DNA of 64,000 bases from Candidatus Heimdallarchaeota archaeon. Its GTDB lineage: Archaea > Asgardarchaeota > Heimdallarchaeia > Hodarchaeales > Hodarchaeaceae. The stretch is from NCBI GenBank assembly GCA_011364965.1, contig RDOB01000001.1, positions 1 through 64,000 of the forward strand, in the 5' to 3' direction. Both the position numbers and the translations under genes were made by a program. How positions within the stretch are numbered: the stretch's first letter is position 1; every line of letters starts with the position of its first letter. This document shows, in pieces, positions 34,906-42,828 of the stretch. The notes below the pieces were generated by a model, which was not told the origin of the DNA, made no database searches, and saw nothing but the letters and a program-made list of their open reading frames with translations.

Positions 34906-35457
34906 ATGCCAACTAAACTATTTGGTCGAGAGATCGAGAATCAACTTGCTTTCGTTGGCCTTGCGAATGCAGGTAAAACTACACTAGTTAAAAGATTAAA
35001 AGGTGATGACAATCTCGAAACTGTTCCCACCATGGGTATGAATATCGAGACGTTAAAAATTGGGGAGATTGAAGTAATGGCTGTTGATTTAGGCGGTCAA
35101 GTTACATTTCCCTCAAGTCTCTGGGAGCCATTTGTTTCACAAGCTTCTGGAATAGTATTTGTTTTTGATTCAGCAGACAAACTTAAGGTCGAGGAAGCGG
35201 GTAAGTGGCTAAAAAAGGTAATTAAGTGGGCACCTGAAGATTCAGCTTTTCTTTTTCTTGCGAATAAACAAGATTTAGATGAAGCAATGAAAACAGAGGC
35301 AATAATACATACATTGGAACTAGAAAAAGAGATGTCAGAACGGCCTAGAACTTTTGGGGTTTATCCCTGTTCAGCTCTTTTAGGTCAGGGCGTAGACGAA
35401 GCATGGAACTGGATGAGTGAACGAATTCAGAGTACATTTTCACGAAAAAAGATATAG
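34906..35457 (+). CDS. Arf-family small GTPase 1
   Basis: GLANAGKTT, PTMG.N.E, DLGGQ, NKQD, CSA. Confidence 0.92.
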   Translation: MPTKLFGREIENQLAFVGLANAGKTTLVKRLKGDDNLETVPTMGMNIETLKIGEIEVMAVDLGGQVTFPSSLWEPFVSQASGIVFVFDSADKLKVEEAGKWLKKVIKWAPEDSAFLFLANKQDLDEAMKTEAIIHTLELEKEMSERPRTFGVYPCSALLGQGVDEAWNWMSERIQSTFSRKKI

Positions 35458-36030
35458 GTGCTGGCAATGAGTTTCCTTACTAAGTTACGAGCAAAGTTCG
35501 CAAAAGAAAAGCTAACAGTTAAAATTGCATGGTTAGGATTAGATCATGCAGGGAAAACGACGATAGTCAAGAGAATTACCTCAGGGGAATTTGATGATAG
35601 TACATTCAGAACTCTAGGGATGAACGTAGACGAATTCAGCTCAGGGAATGTGCGATTCATTTCTTGGGATATAGGAGGACAAGCAGCATTCAGAGAATCG
35701 CTTTGGGAAAGTTATATGGCAGGATCAATGGGAATAGTATATGTCATAGACTCTGCAGACAAATCAAGGTTCGCAGAGGCCCAAGCGGAGTTATGGAGAT
35801 ATGTACTAGACAATGATAAAGTTCAAAATATTCCCATCCTTGTATTAGCTAATAAACAAGATCTGGAAGATGCAGCCTCAGCTGGAGAGGTAGCAAGGTC
35901 TCTTAATTTGCATAAGGTTACAACCCATTCTTATGCTATTGTTCCTACTTCGGCCAAGACAGGGTTTAATGTTGAAGAAGGATTGGAATGGCTTCGACAA
36001 CGAGTAACAGAAAAACTCGAACTCCTCTAA
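35458..36030 (+). CDS. Arf-family small GTPase 2 (ATG 35467 is an alternative start)
   Basis: Amphipathic N-terminal helix SFLTKLRAKF, GLDHAGKTT, WDIGGQ, NKQD, SAK. Confidence 0.93.
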   Translation: MLAMSFLTKLRAKFAKEKLTVKIAWLGLDHAGKTTIVKRITSGEFDDSTFRTLGMNVDEFSSGNVRFISWDIGGQAAFRESLWESYMAGSMGIVYVIDSADKSRFAEAQAELWRYVLDNDKVQNIPILVLANKQDLEDAASAGEVARSLNLHKVTTHSYAIVPTSAKTGFNVEEGLEWLRQRVTEKLELL

Positions 36031-36887
36031 GGTTGTTTTTTCTTCATTACTTTCTTCTCTGAAACGTCATTAATACGCCAACACAGTGCTAAGAAGAGTT
36101 CATACAACTTTTGAAGATCGAGATCTTTTTTGATTCTTGTATATACTCGTATTGATGGATCCTCAGTCGAATCAACGGATATTCTTACTAAAGCGTCCCG
36201 ATTATTATACAAATGTTTCAGTAGAGTCTTATCACCTAATAAATACATACCAGAGCGTTGAGAAGACGCTTTTATGACAAAAAAGTCATCTAACCGCGTA
36301 ACGCCAAGCTTAATATCATCCAATTGAAATAATACATTTTGATGCTTTTTAATTTGGCCTGTTTCATTTTGAGGTATTATCTCCACCTTAGTTGGTACTT
36401 TACCTTTCTTTGGATTAGCCTCCAACGCTATATAGTCATTTGCACCTGAAAACCATGAAATGATCACATTAAGCATGAGATGGCGCTCCTCTAAAGCAAA
36501 AACTACGCGGAAGTCTTTAAAGGGAATATTTTGAGCTTTATTATAAGTAGGGAATAATAATCCCCCATTTGAACTGAATTTTTCTGGTACAAGGTCAGTA
36601 AATTCTTTAGAAAAAACCTCCAAAAGAGATTCACGAGCTACATTCATAATCTTGTGATTTTTTCTTCTACCTGCCCAAAGAAGGTAAAAAGTAAAGAATA
36701 AAACCGTGCCAGGACCCAAAAAAATTATAAAATAGTCAAATAATGAATAAGAAGTGCTCTGTAGAAAAAATATCTTCAGAGAATTTATTATAGTCTGAAA
36801 TAGATAAGTAAAATTGTTCATGGATCTCAAAGAAAAACCAGAAGTAGGAAATTTATTTGTTTCTAGAAATAAAACTACCAATTTCAC
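36027..36887 (-). CDS. Single-pass membrane protein resembling CCDC47/DUF1682 (PAT complex subunit)
   Basis: TM then GRRKN.KI....L...F..EF, and F.L..R..MLN.I.....G.ND.I; recognised by eye against CCDC47 motifs. Confidence 0.55.
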   Translation of the reverse strand: MKLVVLFLETNKFPTSGFSLRSMNNFTYLFQTIINSLKIFFLQSTSYSLFDYFIIFLGPGTVLFFTFYLLWAGRRKNHKIMNVARESLLEVFSKEFTDLVPEKFSSNGGLLFPTYNKAQNIPFKDFRVVFALEERHLMLNVIISWFSGANDYIALEANPKKGKVPTKVEIIPQNETGQIKKHQNVLFQLDDIKLGVTRLDDFFVIKASSQRSGMYLLGDKTLLKHLYNNRDALVRISVDSTEDPSIRVYTRIKKDLDLQKLYELFLALCWRINDVSEKKVMKKKQP

Positions 36888-37347
36888 AATAATTAAATTC
36901 AGTTTTTCCCTGTTTTCCTACAACTTGATAAATTTTAAAAGGCGAGATTTCATCAGAACCTATTTTAATTGGTTCTATGACTAAGGCTACCGAATAATTA
37001 TTGTGTAATTGAAAAGAATAAATGTGGGTCTCAATATCAGTATTTGAAAGAAATAATCCGTATCCTGGATGAGAATGCCACCAACCCACAACATAATCAT
37101 CTTCATGAAGTATTTTCTCAAAAGCTTGAAAATCCTCTTCTGCAAAAGAAACAGAGGCCTCATCTCCCTCGGTGACGAAAACCATTCTTGTTATCACAAG
37201 CTCATCATTCCTCCTCATTTTCCCTCCTAATAATCCAATTGCTTCTCTAGGTATTGATTTCTTTGATATATCTGAAATTTTCTTTAAGGTGGAATATGAT
37301 ATTGTAACAGATTTGACTTGTTGGGTGAGTATAACAGGTTTTGAAAT
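36853..37347 (-). CDS. JAB/MPN+ (JAMM) metalloisopeptidase, deubiquitinase-like (start probably ATT 37347; ORF track starts at 37218)
   Basis: VVGWWHSHPGYGLFLSNTD JAMM motif. The catalytic Glu motif PREAIGLLGG lies in frame upstream of ATG 37218. Confidence 0.9.
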   Translation of the reverse strand: MSKPVILTQQVKSVTISYSTLKKISDISKKSIPREAIGLLGGKMRRNDELVITRMVFVTEGDEASVSFAEEDFQAFEKILHEDDYVVGWWHSHPGYGLFLSNTDIETHIYSFQLHNNYSVALVIEPIKIGSDEISPFKIYQVVGKQGKTEFNYCEIGSFISRNK

Positions 37348-37362
37348 TTGAAGTCCCTCATC

Positions 37363-37905
37363 CTATTGAGCATACTTTTGGGTCCACTCGATAGCATTAT
37401 TCCAATATAGGTCAAATTTTTCTCTCATTTGCTTTCCTGCTTCTGGATTAAATGGATCATTAGGATCAACAAGATATTCAGGAAATTCACCCTCTTGTGT
37501 TACCTGATAAACATCTAACATCATCTCTATATGTTCAAAAACACTAGGAAGGGTTATGGTTTCCTTCCATCCTCCTACTTTTCCGATATTATTCCAATTA
37601 ATTAAACTCAGACAAACGTTGGAGCCCCATTTCCATTGAGTTCTCCCGATGGCGATATTCGGATGCCAAATTTGAGTTATGAAGTTTACAATCGGAGGTC
37701 TAAAGGGATATTCTGGGGGTAATTCAACTTTTATTTCCCATTTTCCATTTTCATAAGGAGTCCCAACTTTTCCTTTAATTATTGCTTTATAATGATGGAG
37801 ATTATTGTTGATTATCTGCCATTTGATAGTACTAGTCTTAGGGGGATAAGTTTTCAGCATTCGTTTGAATTCTTCTCTTAATCGGCGAGAATGGAGATCC
37901 TGCAA
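37363..37905 (-). CDS. Ubiquitin-conjugating enzyme E2
   Basis: RRL.EE, GTPYE.G, P.EYPF.PP.V.F.TQIWHPNI, catalytic VCLS, W, P.DPFNPEA. Confidence 0.95.
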   Translation of the reverse strand: MQDLHSRRLREEFKRMLKTYPPKTSTIKWQIINNNLHHYKAIIKGKVGTPYENGKWEIKVELPPEYPFRPPIVNFITQIWHPNIAIGRTQWKWGSNVCLSLINWNNIGKVGGWKETITLPSVFEHIEMMLDVYQVTQEGEFPEYLVDPNDPFNPEAGKQMREKFDLYWNNAIEWTQKYAQ

Positions 37906-38139
37906 AATGTTTCAGTCCTCTTGTGATTTATTTTTAACATAATGGGTTGTTCTATTATCAGGGTGTCACTTATTAAGCAGCCGAGAAAACCTCAACTTAA
38001 TTCATCTGATAATAATTCACAGCTATAATTATTTTTAAAGCTGGCCTTTGTATGGACAATTTTTATGGCCTTATAAGCTATCTTTTTAAGCTCTGTAATC
38101 ACAATCAGAGTAACTAATCCATCCTATTTGAGTGGGTGA

Positions 38140-38940
38140 TTGTCTATCATGTCCGACAGTGATCTTAGGAGCGCTTCATGTACAGGATGTGGCGCTCCTC
38201 TTTCTACTAAGCCTTCATACAAGCTTCCTGTGAAGTGTGAATACTGTGATCTTACAAATTATCTAAAGAAAACAGTAGTAACACCCGAAGAAGCAAGAAT
38301 TCACGATGCAGAAGAAGAAGCAGAAACCTATTATCTAATTTATAAGGAAACACAAAAAATTCTTGAGAACTTTCATGGAGAAATGGTCGGAGATGAAGTA
38401 GGTAAAGTAAGAATAAAGATGCAAATCAATAGGTATGCCTTTCCCCTCTTAATTGTCTTAGATGATTTACCAGGTCGACCCTATGTGGATGGCCCTGGTA
38501 AATTGCGAGAAATCCTACAATGTGACCTTGGTGAACTTAACTCAATGAAAAACTGGATTCCAGGGACTAGCTCTATCATGGATGTCCTTGAAGAGTTATA
38601 CGAGCGAGTAAGTGCAGTTTTACCTACAGATATTGAAGAAAGCCCTCAAAGATCAAAAGAAAGTGAAGTATTAACAAAAGAAAAGGATGATTTAATCAAA
38701 CAAATTCTCACTAATTATGATACTCTAGCAACTAAAAAACAGGTAATTGTCCGATTCTATTCTCAGGATGGAGAAATAATACCATTTGTTATTAAACGCA
38801 AAAAAAATTATCCAATAGGTATAGAAGAACAGTACCTTGTAAAATTTCCTTTAATTCGAGGCCTTTTGGAAGATTATGCTAAGGGTAGAATTGATCTTCT
38901 TACTACATTAGCTGAAATTGAGAAAATGTTATATATTTAA
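38140..38940 (+). CDS. Zn-ribbon plus UEV/RWD-like (inactive E2-fold) protein
   Basis: CTGCGAPL...CEYC followed by LP.RPYV...L.SM.NW.PG.SSI.DVL.EL, an E2-variant-like pattern without the HPN motif. Confidence 0.55.
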   Translation: MSIMSDSDLRSASCTGCGAPLSTKPSYKLPVKCEYCDLTNYLKKTVVTPEEARIHDAEEEAETYYLIYKETQKILENFHGEMVGDEVGKVRIKMQINRYAFPLLIVLDDLPGRPYVDGPGKLREILQCDLGELNSMKNWIPGTSSIMDVLEELYERVSAVLPTDIEESPQRSKESEVLTKEKDDLIKQILTNYDTLATKKQVIVRFYSQDGEIIPFVIKRKKNYPIGIEEQYLVKFPLIRGLLEDYAKGRIDLLTTLAEIEKMLYI

Positions 38941-38964
38941 AACATCAATAAGGAATGACTAAAA

Positions 38965-39288
38965 ATGGCAAAAAGAGACGTTATCTGGGATTCTGAATCT
39001 CGATCAAAAACCAGTCCAGATTCTGGCATTGAAAAGATGATGAAAATCCGTTTTAAAGACCCACAACTCCCACCGGAACAAAATTTACGGGAGAAGTATA
39101 TCAATATTAATGGAACTGTTTTTCAAGCGATCACTGCTGCAAGAGATGCATTCAATATCCCTGAAGTAGTTCCCATTGCATTACTGTTTAAAGGTAGAAG
39201 GATGAATCCTTCCAATAGCCTTTCTTCTTATGGAATTGAGGAAAATGCAATTTTAATGATAGTTCCAGATCAGATCAAAGGTGGTTAA
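38965..39288 (+). CDS. Ubiquitin-like modifier with exposed C-terminal GG
   Basis: FNIP...LLFKGRRM...SL.SYGI.E..IL ending in IKGG-stop; adjacent to E1. Confidence 0.92.
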   Translation: MAKRDVIWDSESRSKTSPDSGIEKMMKIRFKDPQLPPEQNLREKYININGTVFQAITAARDAFNIPEVVPIALLFKGRRMNPSNSLSSYGIEENAILMIVPDQIKGG

Positions 39289-39314
39289 CACAAAATCGTT
39301 AGAAGGAAAATCTA

Positions 39315-40565
39315 ATGGATTCGGATATTCCTTCTTCAAGATTTGATAGACAGGAGCGCCTATCACTCTGGGATCAAAAATTAATTGAAAAAATAACGGT
39401 TTTAGTCGTTGGTGTTGGAGGTACAGGGAGTGAAGTATGTAAGAATTTATCTTTACTAGGGATTGGTAAATTGATTCTTGTAGATGTTGATTCTATAGAA
39501 TATTCCAATTTAAATCGCCAAATGCTTTTTAGCAAAGAAGATATCGGACAAAATAAAGCTGAAGTAGCTAAAGTAAGGATACTCCATCACTTTAATCCTG
39601 AATTAGAGGTAGAAGTATTTCCTTTTTATGTCCAAGAAATACCTGATAAAACTTTTGAATCGGTGGATGTCATTGCAGGATGCGTAGATAACTATTTAGC
39701 TAGACAATTTCTGAATTCAATAGCTATTGAACATCGAATTCCTTTAATAGATTCAGCAACTGATGGCTATTTAGGCCAAGTACAATCTATTATACCATTT
39801 CAAACTGCTTGCTTAGCATGTGATAATCCTCCTCCACCACAAGAAACTCAAGTTTTAATGGAACCATGTTCAATAGTGGGCGTTCCAAGATCCCGTGAAC
39901 ATTGTGCTTGGAAAGCTCTTTACGAATTTAATACATTATTCAATCGGAAACCAAATGAGACTGAAAAAGATCTGGAAAAATTAACTCAATTGGCCAACGA
40001 ATACACAGAAAGGTATAATTTTGGAAAATTTGAGAGAAAAGAATTATTGCAATTGATTATGTTTCATGTGCCAAGCCTTATCACGGTGAACGCTGTAACC
40101 AGTGGAATTCAAACTCAAGAGATTATAAAAACGATTTTTTCGATTAAACGGAGGGAGCTAAGAAAATCAGAAAGGTTAGCCTTGCAGCAATTAGAAACCT
40201 TAACAAGATTCAAAATTCCAAGTTTGTCCATTTATTCAGCATTAACAGGAACTCTAAATACATTTGATCTTGTTCAGGATCCAGAATGTACTGTATGCGG
40301 AAATATGTCCAATTTAACCCAAAAAATTGAAAAAATAAAGATAAATAAGAAAAATTCCTTGAAAACAATAATAAATGGTTTTTCAGAGAAGTTTAATAAG
40401 GAATTTATAGCTTTTAAAGGAAATTCGGTTCTACAAGAGGATAGATCATTAGAATCGTTATTGAGGGATGGAGATCGCATTACACTTAGTTCTAAAGAGG
40501 ATGAGCAAGAATTTAGAGTACGTATAACTTTTACTCCCCCAAGAAAACAAAGAAAGAAAGAATAG
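39315..40565 (+). CDS. Ubiquitin-activating enzyme E1 (UBA3/ThiF-like with catalytic Cys domain and C-terminal UFD-like region)
   Basis: RFDRQ, GVGGTG.E, DVD.IE.SNLNRQ, KA, CVDN..AR, CLAC, catalytic PCSIVGVPRSREHC, CTVC. Confidence 0.93.
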   Translation: MDSDIPSSRFDRQERLSLWDQKLIEKITVLVVGVGGTGSEVCKNLSLLGIGKLILVDVDSIEYSNLNRQMLFSKEDIGQNKAEVAKVRILHHFNPELEVEVFPFYVQEIPDKTFESVDVIAGCVDNYLARQFLNSIAIEHRIPLIDSATDGYLGQVQSIIPFQTACLACDNPPPPQETQVLMEPCSIVGVPRSREHCAWKALYEFNTLFNRKPNETEKDLEKLTQLANEYTERYNFGKFERKELLQLIMFHVPSLITVNAVTSGIQTQEIIKTIFSIKRRELRKSERLALQQLETLTRFKIPSLSIYSALTGTLNTFDLVQDPECTVCGNMSNLTQKIEKIKINKKNSLKTIINGFSEKFNKEFIAFKGNSVLQEDRSLESLLRDGDRITLSSKEDEQEFRVRITFTPPRKQRKKE

Positions 40566-41079: not shown

Positions 41080-42828
41080 ATGCTTAAGCGGAAATTGAAA
41101 TCATGGTTGAAACTGGCTTCTGCTTCAAATGAACCTCTTACACTCCATGATTTCTCTGAAGCTAATATTGAAATTCTTGCAGATTTTTTAAGACATAAGA
41201 TTGGATCTAAGGAACTTAATGGAATTGTTACTCCTGATAATTCGTTTTATATACCAATGAAATATATAGACGCATTAATAACGAGTAGTTTAGAATCTAA
41301 TGGTACTATAGACATTTGTGATTTAATAGATGCTACCAATTTACCAGGAGAAATTTTAGAAAGCGTTATTCGTAGAAAAGTAAGCCAAATAGATGGATTC
41401 TTTGATGTAATAAATAGAAAATTCTTCACTAAAAAAGGCGCAAGACTAGAATTACTCAAATTGATCGGTAGTACTCTTTCTTTGGATTTAAATTATCTAT
41501 TGAATAGCCTTTATTGGACACAAGATTATCTTGAAGCAGTTTTAAATATGCTAACACAAAATGGCGAGTTTATAGGTTATATTGATCCTTTAAAACAGCG
41601 ATTATACAATTTCACGATTCTCAATTTCAGTTTAAATCAAGATTTTGATAGAAATCTCGAATCGATGAGAAAATTCATACAAACAAATTTTGATCTAAAT
41701 TCAGAGGTATCATTAAAAGATTTAGCAGGATTAACACGATTATCTGAAACTGAAATCAGAGATCTATTGAGAAAACATTGCAAAAATATCACTTTTTTGT
41801 TTTCCTCTGATTTCAAAAATATCTATAACGTATTAGAAATCTTTGGGTATGTATTAAGAGACATTCATGTTTATAATGAAATTCCTATTGAATTTTGGTT
41901 ACAAAGATTAGACATTGATAAAAACGATTTTATGACTTTCCTAAGGGTAATAAATCAGAGTTTGGGAGCTGAGCTTTCAGAAAAGGAATTAAAATCGAAC
42001 CCAATTGAAAATTGGTTCAATCAGGGTATAGATATCGAAGAATTAGCCCTGAAGCTACATTTGGAACCTTTACAACTGCTAACGGAGATCAAAAAATTCT
42101 CAGATCAACTAGGGTTGATTTTAATAACAGGGGAATTTAGAGATCCTTTTTTAATTAAAGGTATAGAGGAATTTGAGATTTTTTGCCAAGTTGATACATC
42201 TATTCATCACAATCCTCAATTATATTTTGAATGTCAAAATTGTCGACGAATAATGTGCTCAAATTGCCGTTCTTCAGGAAGCACACATGTCTGTCCGTTC
42301 TGTGGGAATATTTCAGCATTTATTATCGATCTTCCAAGGCATTGCCAAACCTGTGAGTTGAACTACACCCATTCATTTAATTTAGAGAGTACCGAAGAAT
42401 GTTATTTTTGTAAAAAAGGTCCCTTAAAATCTGGATGGATTGAAAAAAAGGAAATTTTGTACCCTGAAACAGAATTGGACCGAAAATTACTTGAATGGTT
42501 AAACACCGTAAGAAATGAAAGAATTCCTCTTCGTGAAATAATTTCGAACCTTGGAGCTCCTGATCGTGTAGTTATTGAACTACTAGAAACCCATATACTC
42601 TCTAGCAAGGTTAGTGGAAAGATTGATATTAAAGATCTAACTCTTAATAGGAAGGGAGAAAAAAAAGGTGTTTTATGTAGTATATGTGAAACTATACAAC
42701 CAGAGGGAAATGAGTATTATTGTAATTTCTGTAAAACCACTATTTGCATAAATTGCTACAATAAGATGAAATCCGTTGGAATGATTTCGTGCACGGAGTG
42801 TGGAAGCGAGTTGGTGAAATTTAACTAA
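41080..42828 (+). CDS. Multi winged-helix/PCI protein with internal Zn fingers and C-terminal C4C4 RING-like finger; candidate E3 ligase
   Basis: Repeated wHTH units (G.I..D..F/Y, IGYID, SGKID), a CxxC cluster, and C-terminal CxxC-x11-CxxC-x4-CxxC-x11-CxxC. Confidence 0.7.
   Translation: MLKRKLKSWLKLASASNEPLTLHDFSEANIEILADFLRHKIGSKELNGIVTPDNSFYIPMKYIDALITSSLESNGTIDICDLIDATNLPGEILESVIRRKVSQIDGFFDVINRKFFTKKGARLELLKLIGSTLSLDLNYLLNSLYWTQDYLEAVLNMLTQNGEFIGYIDPLKQRLYNFTILNFSLNQDFDRNLESMRKFIQTNFDLNSEVSLKDLAGLTRLSETEIRDLLRKHCKNITFLFSSDFKNIYNVLEIFGYVLRDIHVYNEIPIEFWLQRLDIDKNDFMTFLRVINQSLGAELSEKELKSNPIENWFNQGIDIEELALKLHLEPLQLLTEIKKFSDQLGLILITGEFRDPFLIKGIEEFEIFCQVDTSIHHNPQLYFECQNCRRIMCSNCRSSGSTHVCPFCGNISAFIIDLPRHCQTCELNYTHSFNLESTEECYFCKKGPLKSGWIEKKEILYPETELDRKLLEWLNTVRNERIPLREIISNLGAPDRVVIELLETHILSSKVSGKIDIKDLTLNRKGEKKGVLCSICETIQPEGNEYYCNFCKTTICINCYNKMKSVGMISCTECGSELVKFN

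Follow-up and report, generated by a model that had tools for sequence, protein, structure and literature searches.

We identify, on the reverse strand of the stretch of archaeal DNA analysed here (64,000 nucleotides, hereafter ‘the window’; AT-rich, with a GC content of about 34%), a gene whose product is, with high confidence, a true homologue of the CCDC47 core, consisting of a single transmembrane (TM) helix, a G-x-x-K-N motif and a cytosolic alpha/beta domain. CCDC47, also called calumin, joins Asterix in the PAT complex and is a component of the multipass and SND3 translocons, where it acts as a ribosome-docked scaffold for multi-pass membrane proteins. The possible homology raised by the initial annotation is borne out by our analysis: CCDC47 is the top structural match of the archaeal protein, comes top in sequence searches run in both directions, and relatives of the protein score over the Pfam cut-off for the family. 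What is new is an archaeal ‘mini-CCDC47’ that lacks the tail, for which no PAT partner was detected and which belongs to a family that is absent from the literature we searched.

The longest open reading frame (ORF) at this position, 36027..36887 on the reverse strand, starts from a GTG at 36887 and encodes 286 aa; it is present as originally described, and on the same strand as the genes for JAB (36853..37218) and E2 (37363..37905). This is a real gene and not a chance frame, since every one of the 21 other genomes of the genus has an intact orthologue (59–72% identity), and since, of 400 genomes of the phylum searched with the profile, 113 contain the family. The 35-nt overlap with JAB reported in the initial annotation, however, is present in the longest ORF only and is a start-codon artefact: the GTG falls within the JAB reading frame, whereas thirty homologues of the protein start at or near M23 and an ATG, at 36821, is placed 31 nt past the JAB stop codon; on these grounds the true coding sequence is most likely the 264-aa one, with no overlap between the two genes. 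The gene and the parts of its product are as follows (AF2, AlphaFold2):

36030..36821, reverse strand: CCDC47-like gene, most likely coding sequence (264 aa; ATG at 36821, stop codon at 36027-36029)
36747..36821, reverse strand: short N-terminal segment, residues 1-25, with an amphipathic helix at 2-18 (AF2 model; predicted to be extracytoplasmic)
36672..36743, reverse strand: single TM helix, residues ~27-50, LFDYFIIFLGPGTVLFFTFYLLWA (homologue comparison and AF2 model)
36657..36671, reverse strand: juxtamembrane motif G51-R-R-K-N55, i.e. G-x-x-K-N (family alignment)
36057..36656, reverse strand: cytosolic alpha/beta globular domain, residues 56-255, with the CCDC47 fold (AF2 model and structure searches)
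36030..36056, reverse strand: short basic C-terminal tail, the EKKVMKKKQP region (from the sequence)

Working from the N-terminus of the protein onwards, we see that the initial segment is without counterpart in the structural alignments, which start at model residue 30, and that the TM helix aligns to the TM helix of CCDC47 from residue 135/141. By the positive-inside rule, and with RRKNHK following the TM helix, we would expect a single-pass protein of N-out/C-in topology. The G and N of the G-x-x-K-N motif are near-invariant in the archaeal family and identical in human CCDC47 (GKNKN); below this, the globular domain carries a conserved arginine, R113 (EERHL), and a conserved aspartate, D129 (ANDYI). 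The two stretches that had been recognised as CCDC47-like—WAGRRKNHKIMNVARESLLEVFSKEF, residues 71-96 of the 286-aa ORF and immediately after the hydrophobic helix, and VVFALEERHLMLNVIISWFSGANDYIAL, residues 128-155 of the same ORF—are the same ones that align to human CCDC47 in the family-profile search described below. The archaeal protein then stops 9 residues past the last helix of the domain, the ORF ending ‘EKKVMKKKQP’; the long C-terminal coiled coil is, as had been pointed out, absent. Nearly all tails across the family end in a short K/R-rich stretch, with members from one family of the same class (f4, including L038 and L039) carrying ~60 additional K/E/R-rich residues at the C-terminus; this extra tail matches the coiled-coil end of the Pfam profile for CCDC47.

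A first AF2 model, made with 30 close homologues, was poor (pLDDT 64.8), and Foldseek with that model gave no significant result (7tm3_4 at rank 3, E 0.14). It was superseded by a second, for which diverse members of the family were collected from whole genomes to give an alignment of 67 sequences, all of them archaeal, and for which templates were not used; this model has a pLDDT of 92.2 and a pTM of 0.84. Searched against the PDB with Foldseek, it returns three matches at E <=0.001, each with a probability of 1.00: 7tm3_4 (5e-8; TMq 0.66), 9i78_4 (2.3e-7) and 6w6l_7 (4.2e-6); the next match after these CCDC47 chains being TtfA, at E 4e-3. Our reference chains for CCDC47 are chain 4 of PDB entries 7TM3/7TUT, chain 7 of 6W6L and chain 4 of 9I78; we infer the identity of the last as ctCCDC47 not from the PDB entry but from the accompanying paper, according to which the cytosolic domain of ctCCDC47 is well resolved in 9I78 (PMC12572126). 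VIA-align, a search independent of Foldseek, was run against 48,161 representative chains and places 7tut_4 first (Z 18.5, rmsd 3.3 Å, 227 residues, model 30-261 on chain 135-404) and 9i78_4 second (Z 17.2), followed by TtfA (6t84; Z 11.3, 160 aligned, rmsd 3.5), with all others at Z <=6.1. The spans aligned indicate that the archaeal protein superposes, from its TM helix to its last helix, on the TM and globular domain of CCDC47. CCDC47 chains thus come first in both searches by a wide margin; the outcome that had been named as telling against homology, the absence of any significant profile or structural match to CCDC47, is not what we observe.

The Pfam family for CCDC47 (PF07946, formerly DUF1682) has a profile length of 326 and a curated cut-off of 27.7 bits. 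It is the sole Pfam match of the archaeal protein, with residues 62-162 placed on profile positions 11-124; at 13.4-13.6 bits (E 0.043), the protein’s own score falls short of the cut-off, and the profile check proposed in the initial annotation is therefore sub-threshold for the window protein but positive for same-class relatives, which exceed the curated value. PF07946 is matched by 20 of the 30 close homologues and by 26 of the 67 diverse relatives at E <=0.01 (best 1.5e-9), the only other Pfam family reached at this threshold among the 67 being DUF3137 (3/67). Above the cut-off we find L041 (37.9 bits), L039 (32.5 bits) and P0088 (29.1 bits); L039, which is a long-tailed protein of the same class, aligns through residues 15-304 to profile positions 8-314/326. 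HHalign connects the window’s own clade to the clade with L039 and L041 at 97.9% probability (E 6e-13, 221 columns). Positions ~252-326 of the profile are matched by no member of the window’s clade.

In the reverse direction, a profile of the 67-sequence family searched against 177,635 distinct PDB sequences returns the CCDC47 chains 6w6l_7 and 7tm3_4 as its two best matches (E 0.039), in an alignment that spans CCDC47 from the TM helix (residue 141) to residue 281. Within it, the conserved G, N, R and D of the archaeal family are identical residues in human CCDC47, falling in ‘YIIGKNKN’, ‘LKRQDLL’ and ‘VSDQV’. Narrower queries recover less: phmmer with the window protein finds no match among PDB sequences, a narrow profile (A1) finds only noise in the PDB (e.g. 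Mrs2, L30), a small profile (A6) does not recover CCDC47 from the PDB, and a divergent alignment (A3) used as query gains just 3 further sequences. Searched against 1.84 billion representatives, the family profile finds short relatives only, of about 200-280 aa, with no relative of eukaryotic length among the matches; residues 1-130 of P0088 match nothing at E <=10 among proteins of >408 aa. NCBIfam holds no model for this archaeal family. Two ORFs of 466-467 aa (L058 and L059) that gave weak matches in the TM/motif region were rejected as unrelated multi-TM proteins.

With an identity to CCDC47 of just 9-14%, an E-value for the window protein that is itself marginal in Pfam, and a fold that also recalls the widespread type III secretion chaperone/YbjN-like arrangement (Z 5-6), it might be argued that the resemblance is convergent or a modelling artefact, and that this is an unrelated single-pass protein with a common alpha/beta sandwich. 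We regard this as very improbable: the sequence matches are reciprocal and the structural ones independent; relatives exceed the curated cut-off across nearly the whole of the PF07946 profile; four conserved residues are identical within an alignment that stays co-linear all the way from the TM helix to the domain’s end; and the gap to other folds is wide (Z 18.5 versus <=6.1, TtfA excepted).

Like CCDC47, then, the archaeal homologue has a single TM helix followed directly by G-x-x-K-N, a cytosolic alpha/beta domain that superposes over 227 residues at Z 18.5, a conserved R and D within the pattern ‘L-x-x-R-x-x-L ... D’, and a basic C-terminus. Unlike CCDC47, it is 264 aa long rather than 483; it has no signal peptide or acidic lumenal domain, with ~25 residues ahead of the TM helix in place of ~135; and it is without the C-terminal coiled coil (CCDC47 beyond about residue 404), the part that in its eukaryotic counterpart reaches Sec61, the ribosome and the tunnel exit. 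Its host also differs in being an archaeon without an ER, in whose genome no Asterix, TMEM147 or eL6 was detected. A natural variant lacking the tail provides a minimal system in which to consider the roles of the TM helix, the G-x-x-K-N motif and the globular core alone.

Homologues of the gene bear the source labels Hodarchaeales or Heimdallarchaeota; the window thus comes from a Heimdall-group Asgard archaeon. Within the window’s class the family is near-universal (f1 21/21, f2 2/2, f4 26/31, f5 3/3, f6 8/12 and f7 11/12 genomes), a distribution that looks like that of a housekeeping gene, and it is patchy elsewhere; both of the matches in f20 (2/135) are spurious. A quick maximum-likelihood tree, with the archaeal family members as rows, midpoint rooting and SH-aLRT support only, splits the family into two groups at a branch with 97% SH-aLRT. 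Group A (19 rows) contains members from other Asgard classes together with a third paralogue from one same-genus genome, and group B (48 rows) contains the window’s clade (100%), a sister from the same order, the clade of this genome’s own paralogue, and a clade of the Heimdall class with the long-tailed forms. The paralogue in question is a second, divergent CCDC47-like gene in the same genome (G000:C9:623698-624423; L034:993-1781:+), whose product has 263 aa and a basic tail of slightly greater length, and groups with P0075, P0076 and P0078.

The CCDC47-like gene lies among genes for a ubiquitin-like system and for small GTPases:

34906..36030, forward strand: two tandem Arf-family small GTPase genes (PF00025, 132.5 and 161.8 bits)
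36853..37218, reverse strand: mini-JAB/MPN gene, upstream of the CCDC47-like gene (PF01398, 32.3 bits)
37363..37905, reverse strand: E2 ubiquitin-conjugating enzyme gene (PF00179, 84.9 bits)
38140-38940, forward strand: zinc-ribbon ORF of 266 aa (no Pfam match)
38965-39288, forward strand: Ub-like protein gene, in the ubiquitin-like cluster
39315-40565, forward strand: E1/ThiF gene, in the ubiquitin-like cluster

The ubiquitin-like toolkit is complete and clustered within 37363-40565. The JAB/MPN protein, at 121 aa, covers only the C-terminal half of PF01398 (54-110/117) but retains the H-x-H...S-x-x-D metal motif; as JAB orthologues of the same genus are of equal length, it is a mini-JAB conserved in this short form rather than a truncated gene. 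The tandem Arf genes, which share ~35% identity, run convergently towards the 3' end of the CCDC47-like gene, and the pair is retained elsewhere in the genus at loci with flanks of sufficient length. Further along, at 41080-42828 on the forward strand, there is an ORF of 582 aa in which several C-x-x-C zinc-ribbon pairs occur towards the C-terminus.

Wherever the flanks are long enough in loci of the genus, the gene order E2-JAB-CCDC47-like, converging on Arf-Arf-ThrRS, is conserved. One could accordingly picture the protein as a membrane anchor or adaptor for the adjacent E2, JAB, Ub-like and E1 proteins, for instance in an ERAD-like quality-control module: it is encoded on the same strand as E2-JAB and so close behind the JAB stop that co-transcription is likely, with the whole Ub-like toolkit inside 4 kb. 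This we consider improbable, since the E2-JAB adjacency is missing at all loci outside the genus (L026-L068; ThrRS does not recur there either), though the family is far wider; other lineages have different neighbours, namely a KaiC-like ATPase or CstA; and CCDC47 has no known ubiquitin-related function. With its synteny confined to the genus, the E2/JAB operon was rejected as a deep functional link, and no functional connection can be drawn from this neighbourhood: the adjacency reflects chance gene order within the genus or, at most, co-transcription specific to the lineage. Weak Arf-like matches are found near two class-level loci, L038 and L039. A KaiC/RecA-like ATPase gene (PF06745/DUF7504) is a recurrent neighbour, at 9 loci (L029, L030, L031, L040, L041, L044, L047, L067 and L068) from five other families (f3, f5, f6, f7 and f29); it is not adjacent in the window’s genus.

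What does a CCDC47 homologue do in an archaeal cell? Eukaryotic CCDC47 has Asterix as its binding partner and also makes contact with Sec61, with the ribosome and with a small part of TMCO1 (PMC9630114; for its role and contacts see also PMC7505659). The search for an Asterix-like partner, proposed in the initial annotation, drew a blank: neither this genome (87% complete) nor any of 83 genomes of the class yields a PF03669 match above cut-off, although a small, fast-evolving 3-TM protein such as this could evade an HMM. Nor did we find TMEM147 in this genome, a result that says little as the same search is also blank in control genomes, or, above cut-off, eL6. The latter is the ribosomal protein touched by the globular domain of CCDC47 in eukaryotes. 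One Oxa1-type (EMC3/TMCO1-family) gene, of the ordinary archaeal kind, is present in this genome; a complex prediction for the Oxa1-like and CCDC47-like proteins scored 0.00, giving no verdict either way. In three genomes of the same genus the Oxa1-like gene is a 436-aa ORF (G065:C1:469530-470753, G067:C81:57972-59243 and G074:C18:33343-34572; loci L090-L092), in which the match falls into two parts, residues ~1-154 and 139-202, with ~230 residues inserted; an intein or an additional domain could account for the insertion.

The reading we favour, that the protein is both a CCDC47 homologue and a scaffold or accessory of membrane-protein biogenesis near the translocon, has as a whole a little less than an even chance of being right. 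Under this proposal the protein would lie on the cytoplasmic side of the membrane, close to the ribosome, SecYEG and/or the Oxa1-type insertase, where it would assist membrane-protein biogenesis as a scaffold or in chaperone-like fashion. Its globular domain and basic tail would be turned toward the ribosome or rRNA, whilst the conserved TM helix and juxtamembrane motif would ‘hold’ an intramembrane partner in place of Asterix. Lacking the C-terminal helices, the protein would not be expected to contact and gate SecY in the manner of CCDC47 and Sec61.

TtfA, the third-best structural match, suggests a different job for the same fold. This mycobacterial trehalose monomycolate transport factor A (PDB: 6T84) shares with the archaeal protein an N-terminal membrane anchor and the fold of the globular domain, and is an accessory of the multi-pass membrane protein MmpL3, with which it acts in complex in mycolic-acid export (PMC6593404). 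DUF3137 (PF11335), a bacterial family of unknown function, is matched by P0082 (31.7 bits), P0083 and P0068 over the first half of the globular domain; with these few distant archaeal members matching it, DUF3137 and the archaeal CCDC47-like family probably share a superfamily, although the window protein itself has no match to the DUF3137 profile at E <=0.01. Members of group A adjoin CstA genes at 4 loci (L049, L057, L060 and L064), and a 240-aa protein of unknown kind is encoded beside the group A gene at 9 loci.

An alternative, somewhat less probable than a role near the translocon, is that the protein is indeed homologous to CCDC47 but serves as an anchored accessory of another multi-pass complex, e.g. 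a transporter, the translocon role being a later, eukaryotic specialisation; that Asterix, TMEM147 and eL6 were not found favours such a history and counts against a role near the translocon, as does, for the latter, the absence of the tail. Set against this, the window gene belongs to group B, separated by the 97% SH-aLRT branch from the CstA-linked group; no CstA or DUF3137 gene is detected in this genome (87% complete) and no transporter gene is adjacent; and the best Get3/ArsA gene and the nearest KaiC-like gene are on the same contig but 32-35 kb distant. The similarity to CCDC47 also far exceeds that to TtfA (Z 18.5 versus 11.3), whose identity to the archaeal protein is 2%, for which PDB sequence searches give no sequence-profile link to the archaeal family, and whose mycolic-acid pathway is absent from archaea. 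Taken together, the bacterial relatives (TtfA and DUF3137) and the CstA-linked archaeal paralogues mean that function is not to be read straight from the eukaryotic name; with group A lying beside CstA and TtfA sharing the fold, a role at the translocon is plausible, at somewhat below even likelihood, but unproven.

A more far-reaching version of the favoured reading, and a rather unlikely one in our estimation, is that the PAT-complex scaffold has its archaeal precursor in this family, a membrane-anchored factor of the Heimdall group that would work near the ribosome, organising SecYEG and an Oxa1-type insertase for multi-pass assembly. Were this true, a primordial multipass translocon would be older than eukaryotes and the ER; the forms with long tails would most nearly resemble the eukaryotic state, and the window’s genus would carry a derivative that lacks the tail. 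The finding suggests that the CCDC47 scaffold arose ahead of both its partner Asterix and the ER; with a homologue found almost throughout the Heimdall-group class, the Asgard inventory gains a part of the machinery that handles multipass membrane proteins.

CCDC47 is treated as eukaryote-only in published papers, a 2025 paper describing the PAT complex as strictly conserved throughout eukaryotes. Our literature searches returned no paper that pairs CCDC47 or ‘multipass translocon’ with Asgard, or DUF1682 with archaea; Eme et al. 2023 and six of its supplements make no mention of CCDC47, PF07946 or DUF1682, and the sole paper found to pair CCDC47 with Heimdallarchaeia reports homologues of TRAP, not of CCDC47. 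Automated annotation, for its part, already assigns PF07946 to at least one of the homologues (P0029).
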